64,000 nt of DNA, taken from assembly GCF_050920415.1 (NCBI RefSeq), contig NZ_CP169309.1; one strand, written 5' to 3'. This document shows positions 6,392 to 56,269 of this stretch, in pieces. The notes under the pieces were generated by a model. It had not been told where the DNA came from. It saw only the letters and a list, made by a program, of their open reading frames with translations, and ran no database searches. A program made the translations under genes and the position numbers. The first letter of the stretch is position 1. The number at the start of each line of letters is the position of its first letter. This DNA is from Escherichia coli. GTDB lineage: Bacteria > Pseudomonadota > Gammaproteobacteria > Enterobacterales > Enterobacteriaceae.

Positions 6392-6997
6392 TTACTTAGT
6401 TTTCAGATCATTTTTAACGCTTTTCACACCATCTACCGCTTTGGCGATACTTTCAGCACGGTCACTTTGTGCCTGAGAATCTACGGTACCGGAGAGCTGA
6501 ACCACGCCATCGGTGGTTTCAACTTTCACTTTACGTGAAGGGACGATATCGTCCGCCAGCAGCTTAGCTTTGATTTCACTGGTGGTGGCGGTGTCACCCG
6601 CGTAGCCCTTCACAGAGCCTTCTTTAGCGTCGCGAACGTGCAGTTTGTCGCTGACAGAGGTCACGCCTTCAACGCCTTTCGCCACTTTCACTGCCTCTTC
6701 GGCCTGGGCCTGGCTTTCAACGAAACCGCTCAGGGTCACGACTTTTTGATCGGTTTTGACAGAGATATCGGTGCTCTTGATGTTGTCATGATCCACCAGG
6801 GCCGCCTTCACTTTCGCGGTGATAGCGCTGTCATCCATGAAATTACCGACTTTATTCATAGAGCTATCGACTTTTTGCCCTGCGCTTTCATTGGTTGTCT
6901 GCGCGTTGTTTTCTGCGTAGGCAGAGCCGGTCGCGACGGCAGAGGTCAACATTACAGCCAGCAGAGTTTTCGAAATCTTCAGTCTTGTCATAGTCAT
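6392..6997 (-). CDS. osmY: periplasmic osmotically inducible protein (two BON domains)
   Basis: 201 aa from ATG 6997, with signal peptide [28 protein letters not shown] and repeated BON-type segments. Confidence 0.95.
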
Positions 6998-7389
6998 CGA
7001 TTTATTCCTGTATGTTTGCTCGTAATTTGAGCCTGGCAACACGAGGTTGCATTGCTGAATAGGGAGAGACTTCACCCTCTACAGAAGTCAACGGTCTCCA
7101 TCACAAAATCGATGGGTGATGAATAACGACCATTACAGCCTCTGAATCAGTTATTAATATCGGTAGAATGACAATCGACGGCTTTAGATACTGATATCTA
7201 CGCATTGAACGGTATTTAACGCCGTCAGAAATGTCATTACTTTGTTAAATATAGATCACAATTTTGAAACCGCTCGGGATATCAGCGAAAACATAAGCAA
7301 AAGTGAATGTTTTAAGAACATTCCGTAAGCGGCTAATAAGGAAGGGAAATTGACAGGGCGCAGCGGCTACCGCGCCCTGGAGGCAAGAA

Positions 7390-8976
7390 TTAATGCTCGC
7401 GAGTCTGGTGGAACTGAACGTCCGGATAACGTTCCTGTGCCAGGCGCAGGTTGACCATGCTGGTAGCGATGTAAGCGAGGTTATCGCCGCCATCAAGCGC
7501 CAGTTGGCTTTCGTTCTTACGCTTGAACTCTTCGAATTTCTTCGCGTCCGCACATTCTACCCAGCGTGCAGTGGCAACGTTGACTGACTCATACACTGCT
7601 TCAACGTTGTATTCGCTCTTCAGGCGCGCTACCACCACATCAAACTGCAGCACACCAACCGCACCAACGATCAGGTCGTTGTTGGAGATCGGACGGAACA
7701 CCTGCACCGCGCCCTCTTCGGAAAGCTGTACCAGCCCTTTGAGCAGCTGTTTTTGCTTCAGCGGATCTTTCAGGCGGATACGACGGAACAGTTCCGGCGC
7801 AAAGTTCGGGATACCGGTGAACTTCATCATCTCACCCTGGGTAAAGGTGTCGCCGATCTGAATAGTGCCGTGGTTGTGCAGACCAAGGATGTCGCCCGGA
7901 TACGCTTCTTCAACATGCGAACGGTCGCCCGCCATAAAGGTCAGCGCGTCGGAGATCACCACATCTTTCGCGGTGCGCACCTGGCGCAGCTTCATACCTT
8001 TTTCATATTTACCAGATACCACACGCATAAACGCCACGCGGTCGCGGTGTTTCGGGTCCATGTTGGCCTGAATTTTAAATACGAAGCCGGTAAATTTATC
8101 TTCGCTCGCCTCTACGATACGGGTATCAGTCTGACGCGGCATCGGCGCAGGTGCCCACTCTACCAGGCCATCCAGCATATGATCGACGCCGAAGTTACCC
8201 AGCGCAGTACCAAAGAACACTGGAGTAATTTCGCCCGCAAGGAACAATTCTTTGTCGAACTCGTTAGACGCGCCTTTCACCAGTTCCAGTTCGTCACGCA
8301 GCTGCTGTGCCAGATCTTCACCAACCGCAGCATCGAGATCCGGGTTATTCAGCCCTTTAACAATACGGACTTCCTGAATGGTGTGACCTTTACCGCTCTG
8401 ATAGAGATAGGTTTCGTCTTTATAAAGGTGGTAAACGCCTTTAAACAGCTTGCCGCAGCCAATCGGCCAGGTGATCGGCGCACAGCCGATTTTCAGCTCG
8501 TTCTCAACTTCATCGAGCAGCTCCATCGGATCGCGGATATCACGGTCAAGTTTGTTCATAAAGGTGAGGATCGGCGTATCGCGCAGACGGGTAACTTCCA
8601 TCAGCTTACGGGTACGATCTTCAACACCTTTTGCGGCGTCGATAACCATCAGGCAGCAGTCCACCGCCGTCAGGGTACGATAGGTATCTTCCGAGAAGTC
8701 TTCGTGCCCGGGGGTGTCGAGCAGGTTAACCAGGCAGTCGTGATACGGAAACTGCATCACAGACGTGGTAATGGAGATCCCACGCTGCTTTTCCATCTCC
8801 ATCCAGTCCGACTTAGCGTGCTGGTTGGAACCACGGCCTTTTACTGTACCGGCAGTCTGAATGGCCTGTCCGAACAGCAGCACCTTCTCGGTGATGGTCG
8901 TTTTACCGGCGTCCGGGTGAGAAATAATTGCAAAGGTTCTTCTTTTCGCTACCTCTGCGGCCAAAAGGCTTGTCAT
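7390..8976 (-). CDS. prfC: peptide chain release factor 3 (GTPase); the first 21 codons are supplied by the prophage
   Basis: 528 aa from ATG 8976 ([27 protein letters not shown]..., [12 protein letters not shown]). The ORF-track start at 9003 is an upstream TTG. The att core lies at codons 17-21. Confidence 0.95.
8915..8928. repeat. attL core
   Basis: The 14-bp gggtgagaaataat is identical to 56500-56513. Flanking sequence diverges on both sides. Confidence 0.8.
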
Positions 8977-8992
8977 AATTGTTGTCTCTTTG

Positions 8993-9111
8993 ATTATGTA
9001 CAATCATATGTACAAAGAAAAATTCATGCCGCTGATTGTACATTTTGGAGGTATCAGAGCATAGCAGAACATGATCAGTAGGTGTATTTGTAGCCAAAGA
9101 ACATTTGTACA
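8993..9111. repeat. cluster of TGTACA motifs (probable integrase arm-type sites, P' arm)
   Basis: TGTACA occurs at 8997, 9009, 9037 and 9106. The 22-bp attatgtacaaNcatatgtaca at 8993-9014 recurs at 56314-56335 on the other side of the att core. Confidence 0.5.
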
Positions 9112-9130
9112 TGCAGCAATCTTTACTCTA

Positions 9131-9180
9131 TTGACACTGTTTATTCATACAGTAAAAAATAGTGCTGTATACAAATACAG
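9131..9180 (+). promoter_or_regulatory. SOS-regulated promoter with two tandem LexA boxes
   Basis: TTGACA at 9131-9136. CTGTttattcatACAG (9137-9152) fills the spacer, and CTGTatacaaatACAG (9165-9180) lies just downstream. Both fit CTG-N10-CAG. RBS agaggga at 9184-9190. Confidence 0.75.
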
Positions 9181-9195
9181 TATAGAGGGATTTTT

Positions 9196-9444
9196 ATGCG
9201 TATTGAGATCTGCATAGCCAAAGAGAAAATGACTAAAATGCCAAGCGGTGCTGTTGATGCGTTAAAGGAAGAATTAACTCGGCGCATCAGTAAGCGTTAT
9301 GACGATGTAGAAGTAATCGTAAAAGCCACCAGCAATGACGGGCTTTCTGTTACACGCACCGCAGATAAGGATTCTGCAAAAACATTTGTTCAGGAGACTC
9401 TGAAAGATACTTGGGAGTCTGCTGACGAGTGGTTTGTTCACTAA
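9196..9444 (+). CDS. DinI-family protein
   Basis: 82 aa: [31 protein letters not shown]...[16 protein letters not shown]. It aligns by eye with E. coli DinI (MRIEVTIAK...LQETWESADDWFVSE). Confidence 0.8.
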
Positions 9445-48604: not shown

Positions 48605-49279
48605 ATGAAAACAGTCCATGACATCCGGCGGTCTAACGCCAGAAAACTGAGAGATGGTGTTGGCGGGAATTCTTCCTTTGCCACCATGATTGATCGCGAA
48701 CCAACCCAGACCAGCAGGTTTATGGGAGATGGTGCTACTAAAAATATCGGTGACAGCATGGCACGGCACATCGAAAAATGTTTCGACCTGCCTGTCGGAT
48801 GGCTTGATCAAGAACACCAGACAACGAACATCACAAAAAAACCTGATGTTTCAATCACTAATAAACAAATAACGTTAGTCCCTGTCATATCATGGGTACA
48901 GGCCGGAGCATGGAAAGAAGTTGGCTATTCTGAGGTTGATTTGAGCACAACAGAAACATATCCCTGCCCTGTACCCTGTGGCGAAATGACTTATATATTG
49001 AGGGTGATTGGTGATTCAATGATTGATGAGTACCGTCCGGGGGACATGATTTTTGTCGATCCAGAAGTACCAGCCTGCCACGGCGATGACGTTATTGCAT
49101 TGATGCACGATACAGGTGAAACCACCTTCAAAAGGTTGATAGAAGACGGGACACAGCGTTATCTCAAAGCATTAAACCCCAACTGGCCTGAGCCTTACAT
49201 TAAGATAAACGGTAATTGCTCTATCATTGGTACAGTTATTTTCTCAGGAAAACCAAGAAGATACAAAATTAAAGCCTGA
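48605..49279 (+). CDS. cI: CI-type repressor (HTH + S24 LexA-like autopeptidase)
   Basis: 224 aa with an N-terminal HTH. The C-terminal S24 domain has an AG site (WVQAGAW), a GDSM Ser and TFKRL Lys. Confidence 0.85.
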   Translation: MKTVHDIRRSNARKLRDGVGGNSSFATMIDREPTQTSRFMGDGATKNIGDSMARHIEKCFDLPVGWLDQEHQTTNITKKPDVSITNKQITLVPVISWVQAGAWKEVGYSEVDLSTTETYPCPVPCGEMTYILRVIGDSMIDEYRPGDMIFVDPEVPACHGDDVIALMHDTGETTFKRLIEDGTQRYLKALNPNWPEPYIKINGNCSIIGTVIFSGKPRRYKIKA

Positions 49280-49291
49280 TCAATGTCTATG

Positions 49292-49315
49292 AACCTGCTT
49301 CGGCAGGTTTTTTTA
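49292..49315 (+). terminator. intrinsic terminator after cI
   Basis: aacctgc/gcaggtt stem with a ttcg loop, then a T-run. Confidence 0.75.
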
Positions 49316-49318
49316 TAC

Positions 49319-49363
49319 TTGACAATGTACCATTAAGATACATAATGTACCTGCATAAGATAT
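49319..49363 (+). promoter_or_regulatory. PL with two operators
   Basis: TTGACA (49319-49324), 16 nt, CATAAT (49341-49346). Operators atgtaccattaagatacat (49325-49343) and atgtacctgcataagatat (49345-49363) share the ATGTACC half-site with OR. Confidence 0.6.
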
Positions 49364-49428
49364 CGAACAGGCAGGACGCCCACGAAGTAGCCGTCCGGGG
49401 CATACGAAGACCGGAATGGTTCGTAAAT

Positions 49429-49451
49429 AAAAAAGCGCCCAAGTGGACGCT
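49429..49451 (-). terminator. intrinsic terminator of the antisense moron
   Basis: On the minus strand: agcgtcc/gggcgct stem with an actt loop, then T6. Confidence 0.7.
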
Positions 49452-49474
49452 TCACTTTTGAACTGGATTTATAA

Positions 49475-49684
49475 TCAATTATTTTCTTCATAAATGTTTT
49501 GTAATGTATTTATGAGATTTGGTATTTCTTTTATGGGAAAAGAATATATTGGACTTTCGATAATTTTATCAGATTCAAATGGTGGTTGTTTGCAGGACAG
49601 TTGAACTATAACTGAATTATGATCTTTAACTGGCACACAGTACCAACCACATACATCAAAAACAGGAGTATTTTGATTATCCAT
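49475..49684 (-). CDS. hypothetical 69-aa protein, AT-rich moron antisense to the PL transcript
   Basis: ATG 49684 with RBS gagga: MDNQNTPVFDVCGWYCVPVKDHNSVIVQLSCKQPPFESDKIIESPIYSFPIKEIPNLINTLQNIYEENN. It has its own terminator. No family recognised. Confidence 0.55.
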   Translation of the reverse strand: MDNQNTPVFDVCGWYCVPVKDHNSVIVQLSCKQPPFESDKIIESPIYSFPIKEIPNLINTLQNIYEENN

Positions 49685-49980
49685 TATGTCCTCGACAACT
49701 AAAAACACTGCGTACAAACCTCAAAAGCAGGGAGTTATTTATAAAATTTCATAAAGAATAATTACTGATAGCGACAATTCATTGTTCTTGAATTTTGAAA
49801 AATAGCAAGACAAAACAATGTAAACTTATTTAAGAAAAGTTCTTATTATGTAAACAAAACAACCAATTCGTTATATAGGAAAAACAAATAGTACGCAAGA
49901 AAATATTCAACAGGGGTATTACATTCAACCATAAGAGTAATCGTCTCTTTGGTAACTAATACCGAACATTTTATTGTAAC

Positions 49981-52798: not shown

Positions 52799-53577
52799 TG
52801 ACCACATTTACCAATAAAGAACTGATTAAAGAAATCAAAGAACGAATCAGCAGCCTAGAGGTTCGAGACGATATTGAGCGCCGTGCTTATGAAATTGCTC
52901 TGGCATCGCTAGAAGAGGAGCCGGTGGCGTGGCTGCATTCAGAAAATGGCTTAGGTATTCCGGCAATAACGAGGAGTAAAAACATTGCTGACAGTTGGTT
53001 ATCAAAGGGCTGGTATGTTCAGCCGCTATATATAGCCAAGCCAGTGCCGGTAGTGCCAGATGCTCGTCCGTCTTTAAATAATGGCATAGTCGGTTTTGAT
53101 GAAGGCTGGAACGCCTGCCGCGCCGCCATGCTTCATGGTGCCGAACCTGTAAACCAAACTTACAAGTCACCACACACGCAGTTTGAACAAGTTGCTGACC
53201 TCTACGAAATGCAATTTGATGACGGTCGCACTTGTGCCTTTCACACTGATGCGCAAAAGGCTGCGCAATGGCTTCAGGTGTGCGACGGAAACAGGGTTCA
53301 GGAATACGTTAAGCTGGAACGGCTGCAGAACGCGCTGTCTGGCAACTCTCCGGTAAGTCCAGGTGGTTGGATAAGCTGTAGTGAGCGAATGCCGAATGAT
53401 AAACAGTATGTTTGGTGTTGGGGGAAGTCTTACGGCTGGACTGAGTGCGATACCTTCGAAGGGTATTACGATTGGTCGAGAAACAAATGGTGGGCAGTTA
53501 CTGACAATGAGGAAGAACAGGCATCGAAAGTAACCCACTGGATGCCACTACCGGAGCCGCCGCAGGAGGTGAAGTAA
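52798..53577 (+). CDS. DUF551-domain protein
   Basis: 259 aa with the C-terminal ...KVTHWMPLPEPPQ signature. Confidence 0.6.
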   Translation: MTTFTNKELIKEIKERISSLEVRDDIERRAYEIALASLEEEPVAWLHSENGLGIPAITRSKNIADSWLSKGWYVQPLYIAKPVPVVPDARPSLNNGIVGFDEGWNACRAAMLHGAEPVNQTYKSPHTQFEQVADLYEMQFDDGRTCAFHTDAQKAAQWLQVCDGNRVQEYVKLERLQNALSGNSPVSPGGWISCSERMPNDKQYVWCWGKSYGWTECDTFEGYYDWSRNKWWAVTDNEEEQASKVTHWMPLPEPPQEVK

Positions 53578-53771
53578 TGAACAACTTAATGACAACTAAA
53601 CAAGTCGCCGATTTCTGTGGTGTTTCAGTATCGACAGTTCTTCGCTGGAACAGCGTAAACAGGAGAACTGGTCAGAAATACAGGCCTGACTTTCCAGATC
53701 CTGATATTAAATCCTGCCCAAATAAATGGGCATCACACAAGATTTACAGATTTGCGGGAGTGATTGAGTAA
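53577..53771 (+). CDS. xis: AlpA/excisionase-family HTH protein (putative Xis)
   Basis: 64 aa: MTTKQVADFCGVSVSTVLRWNS... It is the last gene of the early-left operon, near int. Confidence 0.6.
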   Translation: MNNLMTTKQVADFCGVSVSTVLRWNSVNRRTGQKYRPDFPDPDIKSCPNKWASHKIYRFAGVIE

Positions 53772-54053
53772 TATGTATTAGCTTAGATGTGAGCTGACAC
53801 ATCTATGCTTAGATGCCAAACCTAATCTGAGCGTCCACTCTTTACCAAGAGCGGACGTTACCAATGACCATATGACATGAATCGATAAGATCAAAACATT
53901 ATCGCCAAGAAATGTCATACCATTGATACAAATAAAATTGATTACCCCCTTACTCTTGTTGAAAAGTTAGTCGTAGAGTACCTATCGCAATGTAATCAGC
54001 TTTAATCATCTGAAAATTACTCCTTAAAAATTAGCTTTTATATACTGAACAAA

Positions 54054-54773
54054 TTAAATCTCTGTTTCTTTTCCTGCTCGGCTCAACCAATACTCCATTG
54101 TTTGAGTATGAATCTTTTCAGCGTATATTTTATCAATTAATTTATCTTGTTTTTCTTTAATGACTTCACGCAGTGAATCATATAACATAAAAAAACGTTC
54201 ATCATCTTCCTCATTATTACCGTAATTTATTTGATTGAGCTCTGAAAAAATATGATAGTACCTTTTTTTCTTGGTCCCCGGCAATATTAAAACCAAGCCA
54301 CATTGATCATATTCGAATTCACCTTTATGGGCAGCAAAGTTATGTCTAACATTCATAATAGAATCATGTAAATCTCTATATTTTTCTGGCACATGCTTTC
54401 TCTGCAATGTGAATCGACGCCCTTTCGCCTCTGTAAAACACTTACCGTAAGTAACAACTTTTGATATAAACAAAGACTTTAATATTAGATTCTTTTCTAA
54501 ATCCGGATAAATAAAGTGTTGTTCTTTATTAATGTTATTACAAATATTTTTTATTATATTCTCCCAACCAATAACATTCCGAAGATCTTTATCAAGCAAC
54601 TGTAAGGCCACATATTGTTCTACAAAGCGGCCTTTTAAAGGTATTCGTGGTAATATTACACCTTTCTGCTTATAAATTCTTTCTATCGTATTATCTGGAT
54701 ATTGGATCTTCCTTATTTCTATTCCGTCTTCTTCTGATACCCTTACTAATGGTTCATTTTTTAACTTTGACAT
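54054..54773 (-). CDS. hypothetical protein with an Rx5H (HEPN-like) motif; candidate abortive-infection/defence gene
   Basis: 239 aa, strongly AT-rich, with RBS aagaggg. NVRHNFAAHKG (R143...H149) sits in a predicted helical context. The gene lies downstream of int in cargo position. Confidence 0.7.
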   Translation of the reverse strand: MSKLKNEPLVRVSEEDGIEIRKIQYPDNTIERIYKQKGVILPRIPLKGRFVEQYVALQLLDKDLRNVIGWENIIKNICNNINKEQHFIYPDLEKNLILKSLFISKVVTYGKCFTEAKGRRFTLQRKHVPEKYRDLHDSIMNVRHNFAAHKGEFEYDQCGLVLILPGTKKKRYYHIFSELNQINYGNNEEDDERFFMLYDSLREVIKEKQDKLIDKIYAEKIHTQTMEYWLSRAGKETEI

Positions 54774-55012
54774 GTTAACCCTCTTAAATAAAAAACTAAC
54801 TTTATCCAGATAGTGTCCGTTAAGAAGTTTTCGTTACAACTAAGTTTCTAGGTAAATCATGAATCGACCTATAGTATCAAAAACATTTGGTGGTAAACAT
54901 CTGCATTTATCAAATGGCAGGAGCGATTTAGGGGCATAGGGATAGTGATGATATCGATACCCGCCCCCTCTTATGTCAACACAATGGCGTAAACTTAACG
55001 CTCACATCTCGC

Positions 55013-56269
55013 TCAAAGTGTGCTAGGAGATTTGGTTATGTTCAGGTGATACAAACCGTCAGTTTGACAATTAACAATCGATTCAACCCTCTTCCACCAT
55101 GCCAGGTAAGCTTTACGCTGTTCTTCTAGATAATCACTCTTATCATAAACTTGCCATACCCCTGGCAGCTTATGACCAAGCATAATTTCTGCGATATGAG
55201 GCGCAGTAAGATCAGAAAAATTTGTTCGAGCTGTACGTCTCAAGTCATGAAGAGACCAATGAGGGAATTGATATCCTAAACACCGCCATGCGTACTGCAT
55301 TAAATTGTAAGGCAGCGACTGCAATGATGTCCGACCAACGGGTTCCCTGCTTCCTTCCTTAGTAAAAAGCATATCGGAACCATTGTTCATAGAGATAGCG
55401 TACTTTATAAGCTCTTCAACCGGTTCAATAATGGGCCGCTTTAGCGGTTCGCCTGTTATCTCCCCAGTCTTATGTCGTTCTGGTGGTACAGTCCATACTT
55501 TATTAATGAAATCAAAATCGTCCACCCGGGCGGTAATTAGCTCTGAACTACGGCAACCAAAATGCAGCAATAGTTTAATGAAGGCCCGGTATTTAGGAAC
55601 CATTCGAGAACCATCGATCGCAGCATAAAGGATTTTAATTTCATCATGTGTCAGAAACCGTTTCTTCTGACCTTTACGGATATCCATATCTTTACCCGTG
55701 ATATCCGACAGCGGGCGAGTTTCAATGAGCTTTCTCTTATACGCCCAGACATGGGCCTGCTTTGCGTTAATTAGCAATCGGTCTGCTATTGCTGGAGTCT
55801 TAGTGCTAAGAGGCTCCAGGACTTCTAACCAATCATGCAATGTAGCTGCATCGTGAGGGATATTCCCGATTTTAGAGAACAGGTGCAGCTCAAACGAGCG
55901 AAGTATCTGTTCAGAACCTTTTTTATTTTTTACACAATATGCTTCATACCAAGCACGGATCACAGACTCTACCGTCATGGCTTCAGTAGCTTTTCGTTTT
56001 TCAGCCTGCTTGACCAATCGTGGATTACGGTTTGACTCGAGTTCACCACGAAGACGGATAACTTCTTCTCTGGCCTCTTTTAATCCAGTTGCCGGGTAAG
56101 TTCCGATATCAAGACGCTCACCTTTCCCTGCCCATTGATAACGATATTGGAACACTACGCGACCTTTCGGTGATACTCTGACAGACAGACCATCACGATC
56201 GGATTTAACCAAAACCTTATCACGTTCCTTTCCAACGACTGAACGCAACCACGCATCAGACAGCGCCAT
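55013..56269 (-). CDS. int: tyrosine integrase (P4-type, N-terminal DUF4102-like arm-binding domain)
   Basis: 418 aa with catalytic-domain motifs ...HFGCRSSEL..., HDLRRTART..., LGHK...VYD (R-H-R-Y pattern). Confidence 0.9.
   Translation of the reverse strand: MALSDAWLRSVVGKERDKVLVKSDRDGLSVRVSPKGRVVFQYRYQWAGKGERLDIGTYPATGLKEAREEVIRLRGELESNRNPRLVKQAEKRKATEAMTVESVIRAWYEAYCVKNKKGSEQILRSFELHLFSKIGNIPHDAATLHDWLEVLEPLSTKTPAIADRLLINAKQAHVWAYKRKLIETRPLSDITGKDMDIRKGQKKRFLTHDEIKILYAAIDGSRMVPKYRAFIKLLLHFGCRSSELITARVDDFDFINKVWTVPPERHKTGEITGEPLKRPIIEPVEELIKYAISMNNGSDMLFTKEGSREPVGRTSLQSLPYNLMQYAWRCLGYQFPHWSLHDLRRTARTNFSDLTAPHIAEIMLGHKLPGVWQVYDKSDYLEEQRKAYLAWWKRVESIVNCQTDGLYHLNITKSPSTL

Follow-up and report, generated by a model that had tools for sequence, protein, structure and literature searches.

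We describe here a gene which codes for a protein of 239 amino acids (aa) and lies between the excisionase gene xis and the integrase gene int of a prophage in Escherichia coli (assembly GCF_050920415.1, contig NZ_CP169309.1). The whole stretch of DNA analysed, 64,000 nucleotides (nt) long, will be called the window; the coordinates of all features are collected in Table 1. The gene is mobile, exchangeable cargo of the prophage end, found in a slot which it shares with a known defence gene. Its product probably represents a new solo-HEPN-like defence family. For a more precise reading, in which the protein would be a stand-alone HEPN-type endoribonuclease working as a prophage-encoded abortive-infection or exclusion protein, we estimate a probability of about one half. 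Solo-HEPN defence proteins of prophages are already known as a kind; what is new is the family to which this protein belongs.

We will start with the motif which led to this reading. The protein contains the peptide NVRHNFAAHKG, in which R143 (codon 54345–54347) and H149 (codon 54327–54329) are separated by five residues. The family was aligned with 154 members, which have a mean identity of about 28%. R143 is found in all of them and H149 in 153, while A148 and G151 are found in 149 and 150 members. Residue 144, next to the arginine, is H in 96 members, N in 56 and D in the other two. The family signature is R-[HND]-x3-A-H-x-G, set within a larger group of invariant polar residues: Y109, R119 and H136 have no exception, D63 is present in 152 members, position 111 is K in 142 and R in the remaining 12, and position 156 is acidic in every aligned member. 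Since the motif and these other residues are nearly invariant at such a low identity, they make up a conserved constellation which resembles an active site, and the Rx4-6H match is not due to chance.

The HEPN fold is a four-helix up-down bundle made of two alpha-hairpins, usually with an insert between helices 2 and 3; it is defined by an Rx4-6H motif at the end of helix 3, with a polar residue (N, H or D) directly after the conserved arginine (PMC3710099). The AlphaFold2 model of our protein has a predicted local distance difference test score (pLDDT) of 87 and a predicted template modelling score (pTM) of 0.76. It shows helices at residues 49–79, 83–88, 92–111, 130–148 and 188–221, with a four-helix up-down core. 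The motif, R143-x5-H149, is placed at the C-terminal end of helix 3 (130–148), and its second residue (144), directly after the arginine, is H, N or D in 154/154 members. The place of the insert between helices 2 and 3 is taken by a conserved loop (112–129) which contains the invariant R119. As for the conserved upstream acidic residue of HEPN proteins, which belongs to helix 2 and is close to the motif, D63 sits in the first long helix and the acidic position 156 comes after the motif. Besides the helices, the model has beta strands at 9–15, 18–24 and 30–36, which form a three-stranded N-terminal region (9–36), and a beta-hairpin at 157–180. Within the N-terminal domain Y34 is kept in 82% of the family.

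A second model was obtained for an environmental member with about 30% identity (P0174). It has the same succession of elements: two helices, a loop, a third helix which ends at the motif (helix 74–91, motif 87–93), the hairpin and a fourth helix. With its annotated length of 193 aa this member could be taken for a natural N-terminal truncation. This is not the case: the start codon was miscalled, the real open reading frame (ORF) has 245 aa (L009 7845–8582), and after correction the N-terminal beta domain is also found in this distant member. The predicted fold is robust, and according to the models the protein fits the structural and motif definition of HEPN, without a significant link to any established HEPN family. 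A first-pass annotation, made from the DNA sequence alone, had noticed the Rx5H motif and had suggested a HEPN-like protein; the motif is present and conserved, and a HEPN-like four-helix core is predicted, so that the two computational checks named there, on fold and on conservation, turned out in its favour. It had also read the protein as all-helical, which has to be corrected in view of the beta region and the hairpin.

The family is undescribed in the databases and literature which we have searched. The protein matches phrog_8440 over its full length (1–239 of 239, E 1.4e-142), but this PHROG has no assigned function. No match was found in Pfam (E ≤ 10), PADLOC (E ≤ 10) or NCBIfam, in agreement with the first-pass annotation, in which no specific family had been recognised. 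The identical protein is UniProt A0A0B1N468; gp29 of Escherichia phage 2H10 (Glaedevirus) is 97% identical and is annotated as 'hypothetical protein'. Exactly this sequence occurs in 885 contigs and a variant nearly identical to it in 1000 or more, all of them named hypothetical or uncharacterised. A word-indexed search gave 25 clusters, all from Enterobacteriaceae; with the family profile, and including values up to E ≤ 10, the same search gave the same 28 proteins, which carry no Pfam tags. A scan of genome contigs confirmed a single locus. By an exhaustive profile search we found 925 representatives (clustered at 50% identity) at E ≤ 1e-3, 398 of them at E ≤ 1e-10. Almost without exception they stand alone, with a length of 220–260 aa. 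The named members come from Serratia, Pantoea, Parendozoicomonas and Acinetobacter baumannii, always as 'hypothetical'. The identifiers of the protein are mentioned in no paper of the literature searched, and the supplementary tables of DefensePredictor do not contain its signature peptides.

Membership of the AbiU2, AbiV or AbiD/F types, also suggested in the first-pass annotation, is not upheld. The AbiV, AbiU2, AbiD/F and AbiJ profiles gave no match to the query at E ≤ 10 and no consistent match among 72 members. The only known family which surfaces in sequence scans is HEPN_AbiU2 (PF18734), below threshold; PADLOC gives no AbiU match. The E values are 0.51 and 0.18, with 10–12 bits against a cut-off of 26.8 bits, and are not significant. 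The two alignments, one with the core of the family consensus and one with member P0171, both place the R..H region at profile positions of about 113–141. We consider this trace as a hint only.

The candidate gene really codes for a protein and is under purifying selection, since the ratio of non-synonymous to synonymous substitution rates (dN/dS) is 0.04–0.17 when it is compared with its orthologues from Cronobacter, Leclercia and metagenomes. Between the int stop codon and its start there are 239 bp. Its GC content is 0.312, and 0.263 at third codon positions, compared with 0.444 for int, 0.494 for the early gene next to it and 0.509 for the window as a whole. What had been said in advance about the place, strand and length of the gene, its orientation with int, a gap of about 240 bp, a good ribosome-binding site (RBS) and a composition richer in AT than the phage backbone agrees with these data; the RBS is AAGAGGG, 5 nt before the ATG. 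The gene is present in 70 of 5426 complete E. coli genomes, in the chromosome every time. Inactivated copies are found occasionally: one E. coli genome (NZ_CP116067.1) has an IS1 insertion in the gene and one viral contig has a frameshift (L037 1510–2066). The latter copy might be taken for another, divergent allele of the slot; it proved to be the same allele, turned into a pseudogene by the frameshift. Because such interrupted and frameshifted copies exist, it is clear that loss of the gene is tolerated.

The slot occupied by the gene is apparent when the prophage is compared with Stx2c- and Stx1a-converting phages which have the same int and xis: a module of about 1.2 kb has been exchanged. 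Homology with the Stx2c phage (L002) breaks at 53841 and restarts at 55067, within the last int codons. The integrase has 418 aa here, and its C-terminal tail is unlike that of the 407-aa version of the Stx phages. Since the boundary of the cassette is inside the 3' end of int and the tails differ, the exchange of cargo rewrites the last 18 or so codons of the integrase. The same integrase is found in 697 of the 5426 complete genomes (13%), and the candidate cassette in 69. In 42 E. coli genomes the same slot is filled by a dGTPase gene, which codes for 408 aa and is a defence gene according to PADLOC (PDLC02374, E 8e-105). Other alternatives, in either orientation, code for proteins of 331 aa, 413 aa and 342 aa and for a pair of 160 and 81 aa (all slot alternatives: L049–L054 in E. 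coli chromosomes, and L002). These proteins are hypothetical and have no match in PADLOC; by their position their genes are candidates for further defence functions. The slot has the features of a prophage defence hotspot: conserved flanks and at least six unrelated inserts, one of them a known defence gene. Because its conserved flanks hold unrelated inserts, including the dGTPase recognised by PADLOC, the xis–int slot is demonstrably a hypervariable cargo hotspot which carries anti-phage genes. An AT-rich single gene close to an integrase had been considered a typical position for defence genes, a view which is borne out by the dGTPase in the same slot and by the int-att hotspot of P2 discussed below.

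The contexts which we found for homologues in other genomes are all mobile or defence-like. In P2/186-like prophages of Yersinia, Enterobacter and Citrobacter, and in several IMG/VR contigs, a homologue with 37–45% identity lies directly downstream of the integrase. It overlaps the int stop codon by 17–20 nt or starts within 35 nt, and no further gene separates it from the host flank. A 2026 survey counts the int-att region of P2 as a minor hotspot of defence (PMC13586616). Homologues with 31–86% identity from Cronobacter, Serratia, Pantoea and further viral contigs lie at the tail end of prophages of lambdoid or myovirus type, after a umuD/umuC-like pair or what remains of it (L004–L006, L033, L035, L038, L039, L055–L058). 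This synteny may correspond to a functional link or to a shared cargo region. One of these loci, an IMG/VR prophage contig, has a TIR protein of 258 aa two genes away from the homologue (L039 8223–8999, minus strand; Pfam TIR_2, E 1e-26; PADLOC PDC-S66, ThsB).

Outside these groups the homologue of the environmental contig L009 lies between a CBS protein (6641–7783) and a HigB toxin pair (8742–9430). The CBS protein, which is upstream, ends in VRETRNDVMHFDPDG, a classic RNxxxH HEPN motif; this neighbourhood looks like a defence island. A 292-aa form of the homologue is found beside the VirB8/9/10 conjugation genes of a type IV secretion system. The homologue of A. baumannii (P0180) closes a tight four-gene operon, which codes for proteins of 368, 149, 220 and 244 aa (L045 5773–8735; also L046 and L047). 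The other three products have no match in Pfam or PADLOC and are not paralogues. The 220-aa neighbour was considered as a possible paralogue and was discarded, with a probability of 0.3% in hhalign. This operon is common, with 291 blocks in the collection, and may be an undescribed multi-gene system. No conserved partner gene was found across the enterobacterial contexts examined, and no MNT nucleotidyltransferase was found near the homologue in any locus with gene annotation that we examined. The idea of a single-gene system, put forward in the first-pass annotation, does not apply everywhere, in view of the operon of Acinetobacter.

Among known systems the best precedent for a solo-HEPN abortive-infection protein in a prophage is HepS, an anticodon nuclease of Salmonella Gifsy-1 (STM14_3211; PMC13043305). 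Like our candidate it is a single protein of less than 250 aa, encoded by prophage cargo which lacks a conserved partner and often lies close to integrases or to structural genes of the phage. An Rx4-6H motif is common to the two proteins; in HepS it is Rx4H at about position 100–105. HepS binds its trigger peptide through beta-strand contacts (PMC13043305). The candidate HepS ORFs of the LT2 Gifsy-1 record gave no match in PDB. AbiV of Lactococcus is also a HEPN RNase of abortive infection (bioRxiv 10.1101/2024.05.05.592566), but its PADLOC and Pfam models do not match our protein. It works with an RNA antitoxin (abiV2), whereas no RNA or repeat element was found in the flanks of the candidate; in AbiV the R and H are not strictly conserved, whereas in our family the two residues are practically invariant.

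The HepT/DUF86 proteins of HEPN-MNT type VII toxin-antitoxin systems (PDB 7ae2, 1ylm) differ by their MNT antitoxin, not found next to the candidate loci, and by their RX4HXY motif, replaced by RxxxxAHxG in our family; the sequence identity is 8–9%. The prophage dGTPase has the same position and backbone as the candidate and is also a single AT-rich cargo gene, but it is on the opposite strand and is an unrelated protein with another mechanism, depletion of dNTPs. Single proteins are also known in which a HEPN effector is joined to a module for sensing or regulation, some of them in prophages: DS-11 (CBS and HEPN) and other one-protein HEPN systems validated with DefensePredictor (PMC13092281), and Tha of Staphylococcus aureus prophages (PMC11087260). 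The accessory domains of DS-11 and Tha are unlike that of the candidate; the CBS protein with an RNxxxH motif found beside the L009 homologue resembles the validated DS-11. As far as the models show, the architecture of our family stands apart from those described, by its N-terminal beta domain, the hairpin after the motif, the Rx5H motif with an AHxG tail and the additional invariant Y, R and H.

These observations are best explained by the following mechanism. The protein would be a stand-alone effector, with a small N-terminal beta domain and a HEPN-type four-helix core. Helix 3 ends with the invariant R143-[H/N]-x3-A-H149; with D63, Y109, R119, H136 and E/D156 this motif would form an endoribonuclease site which needs no metal. 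A dimer would probably be required to complete the site, as in other HEPN enzymes, where the His and the Arg are catalytic (PMC3710099). The RNase chemistry of our protein is inferred by comparison with these enzymes; its dimerisation, its expression in the lysogen, its trigger and an outcome by abortive infection are inferred as well. The int gene of P2/186-like phages shares its transcript with the immunity repressor. The homologue of these prophages appears to be translationally coupled to int, in what would be a cI–int lysogenic transcript, so that the protein would be made in the lysogen. Its activity would be blocked until the cell is superinfected and some component of the incoming phage is sensed, possibly via the beta domain or the hairpin. 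Once activated it would cleave tRNA, rRNA or mRNA and infection would be aborted, as with HepS, Tha and AbiV. A role in defence is suggested because the slot is shared with the dGTPase and because the homologues sit at prophage ends and in mobile elements.

Several results weigh against the interpretation as a stand-alone HEPN RNase. We found no statistically significant link of sequence, profile or structure to any established HEPN family in Pfam, PADLOC, NCBIfam, PDB or Foldseek searches. Sets of 24, then 72 and then 10 members, together with the consensus, gave no consistent match in Pfam or PADLOC. Family profiles built with 24 and 72 sequences gave only noise against the PDB sequences (bacterioferritin, E 0.05), and Foldseek found nothing below E 1e-3 in PDB and BFVD, with a best value of E 0.078. 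A solo toxic RNase with no antitoxin would also need a mechanism of autoinhibition. Finally, the A. baumannii homologue is the fourth gene of an operon, so that the description as a single-gene system may fail for the family as a whole.

The lack of significant homology to HEPN, the generic character of the fold and the unusually rich set of invariant residues are what one would expect if the protein worked in defence or conflict without being a HEPN RNase. The four-helix bundle would then be convergent, and D63, Y109, K111, R119, H136, R143, H149 and E156 would form a different active site, a pocket for nucleotides, NAD or small molecules, or a phosphotransfer site. The faint AbiU2 alignments fall exactly on the motif, which argues against this view, and phosphotransfer in particular does not suit an AHxG at the end of a helix: the His of histidine phosphotransfer domains is in the middle of a helix, in HxxKG. 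We consider a non-HEPN protein, the main rival of our reading, to be rather unlikely. It is doubtful to a larger extent that the family is an independent sensor-effector immune protein, not a diverged HEPN, in which a beta-sheet sensor is joined to a four-helix catalytic module, the eight invariant polar residues provide a chemistry new to phage defence, and the whole has been reused as the effector of the A. baumannii four-gene system. A third view keeps the HEPN-like toxin and changes its purpose: an addiction or stabilisation module, or a stress-responsive RNase, perhaps with a small or RNA antitoxin which has escaped recognition. HEPN toxins are common in toxin-antitoxin systems (PMC3710099), AbiV has its RNA antitoxin and a HigB pair adjoins the homologue in L009. 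Directly downstream of the candidate gene there is also an ORF of 19 codons, MIKADYIAIGTLRLTFQQE, with a strong RBS, AAGGAG (53949–54008, minus strand). However the homology with Cronobacter and Leclercia stops at 54046 and 54030, before this ORF, and nothing equivalent follows the genes of the P2 clade, so that it is probably not a partner or antitoxin of the candidate gene. The region 53700–55100 has no Rfam match, no tandem repeats (TRF) and no significant repeats, and there is no MNT neighbour. Thousands of contigs tolerate the gene as a singleton, and the copies inactivated by IS1 or a frameshift show that its loss is not lethal, contrary to a classic addiction module. A toxin of this kind is improbable.

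Two more alternatives depend on the neighbours of the gene. In Cronobacter, Serratia, Pantoea and several IMG/VR contigs (31–86% identity) the position directly after umuD/umuC-like genes or their remnants would agree with a function which benefits the phage, either as a counter-defence factor or with a role linked to lysogeny or the SOS response; anti-defence and conversion genes are also found at prophage ends. But in E. coli and in the P2 clade the neighbour is int and there is no link to umuDC, homologues are also found outside prophages beside defence-like genes, and a conserved Rx5H site of catalytic appearance suits an effector better than an inhibitor. Such a function seems quite improbable to us. 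The protein could also be conceived as an accessory factor of site-specific recombination, which influences directionality or stability, as it adjoins two unrelated types of integrase, in the same orientation, with an overlap of stop and start codons in P2-like prophages. This is scarcely credible: xis is present here and cox-type functions in other cases, many homologues (Cronobacter, Serratia, Acinetobacter, L009) have no integrase nearby, about 90% of the prophages with the same integrase hold unrelated cargo instead of the gene, and the protein has no DNA-binding fold.

If the protein is indeed a stand-alone HEPN defence RNase, a new and fairly widespread family joins the few self-contained HEPN immune proteins known so far. 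Its approximately 925 clusters (50% identity) extend over E. coli, Cronobacter, Yersinia, Serratia, Pantoea, Acinetobacter and environmental bacteria, and they are entirely overlooked by PADLOC, Pfam and NCBIfam. The xis–int junction would also be validated as a hotspot in a group of prophages present in 13% of the complete E. coli genomes, with at least four other cargo genes which have no annotation. The backbone is common to Stx1a- and Stx2c-converting phages, so that the cargo of a lysogen could affect phage susceptibility and the spread of Stx phages in pathogenic E. coli. The hypothesis is cheap to test, since the protein is small and solo and has an obvious pair of presumed catalytic residues.

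Table 1. Features of the candidate gene and its surroundings (positions in the window)
Feature	Position	Strand	Basis
Candidate coding sequence, 239 aa, ATG start	54054..54773	(-)	ORF list; phrog_8440 match; dN/dS
Codons R143–H149 (RHNFAAH), Rx5H putative catalytic motif, C-terminal end of helix 3	54327..54347	(-)	Alignment and models
Predicted HEPN-like core, residues 49–221	54111..54629	(-)	Helices 49–79, 92–111, 130–148, 188–221; insert; hairpin
N-terminal beta domain, residues ~8–47, candidate sensor/oligomerisation module	54633..54752	(-)	AlphaFold2 strands, pLDDT above 90; conservation
RBS AAGAGGG, 5 nt ahead of ATG	54779..54785	(-)	Kept in Cronobacter and Leclercia
Leader travelling with the gene, putative own promoter/operator	54774..54930	(-)	DNA homology to Cronobacter locus
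Exchangeable cargo cassette, including last ~18 codons of int	53842..55066		Comparison with same-backbone prophages and Stx phages
Excisionase xis, final gene of early-left operon, convergent on candidate gene	53577..53771	(+)	Annotated excisionase in phage 2H10
Tyrosine integrase int, upstream of and co-oriented with candidate gene	55013..56269	(-)	697/5426 complete E. coli genomes

The DNA homology with the Cronobacter locus covers positions 54046–54930, so that a leader of about 157 bp moves with the gene. In this leader there is a conserved imperfect palindrome, TGCCATTTGATAAATGCA (54902–54919, minus strand), and an extended -10-like element, TGATACTAT (54871–54879, minus strand), which is weak and was seen by eye. 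They may be the operator and promoter of the gene. A consensus scan of the 239-bp gap between int and the gene found no sigma-70 promoter. A LexA box was considered in relation to the umuDC neighbours, and was discarded: the palindrome has the spacing CTG-N14-CAG and not N10.

A second AT-rich patch is found at 49280–49970 (GC about 0.31), immediately downstream of a CI-like repressor gene (48605–49279, plus strand), in the position which rexAB has in lambda. It contains only an ORF of 80 aa (49475–49717, minus strand), with no PADLOC match. The integrase gene runs from the att side toward xis and the early-left operon and converges with them, while in lambda int and xis are co-oriented. From 56655 onward the host flank reads as yjjG, rimI and holD.

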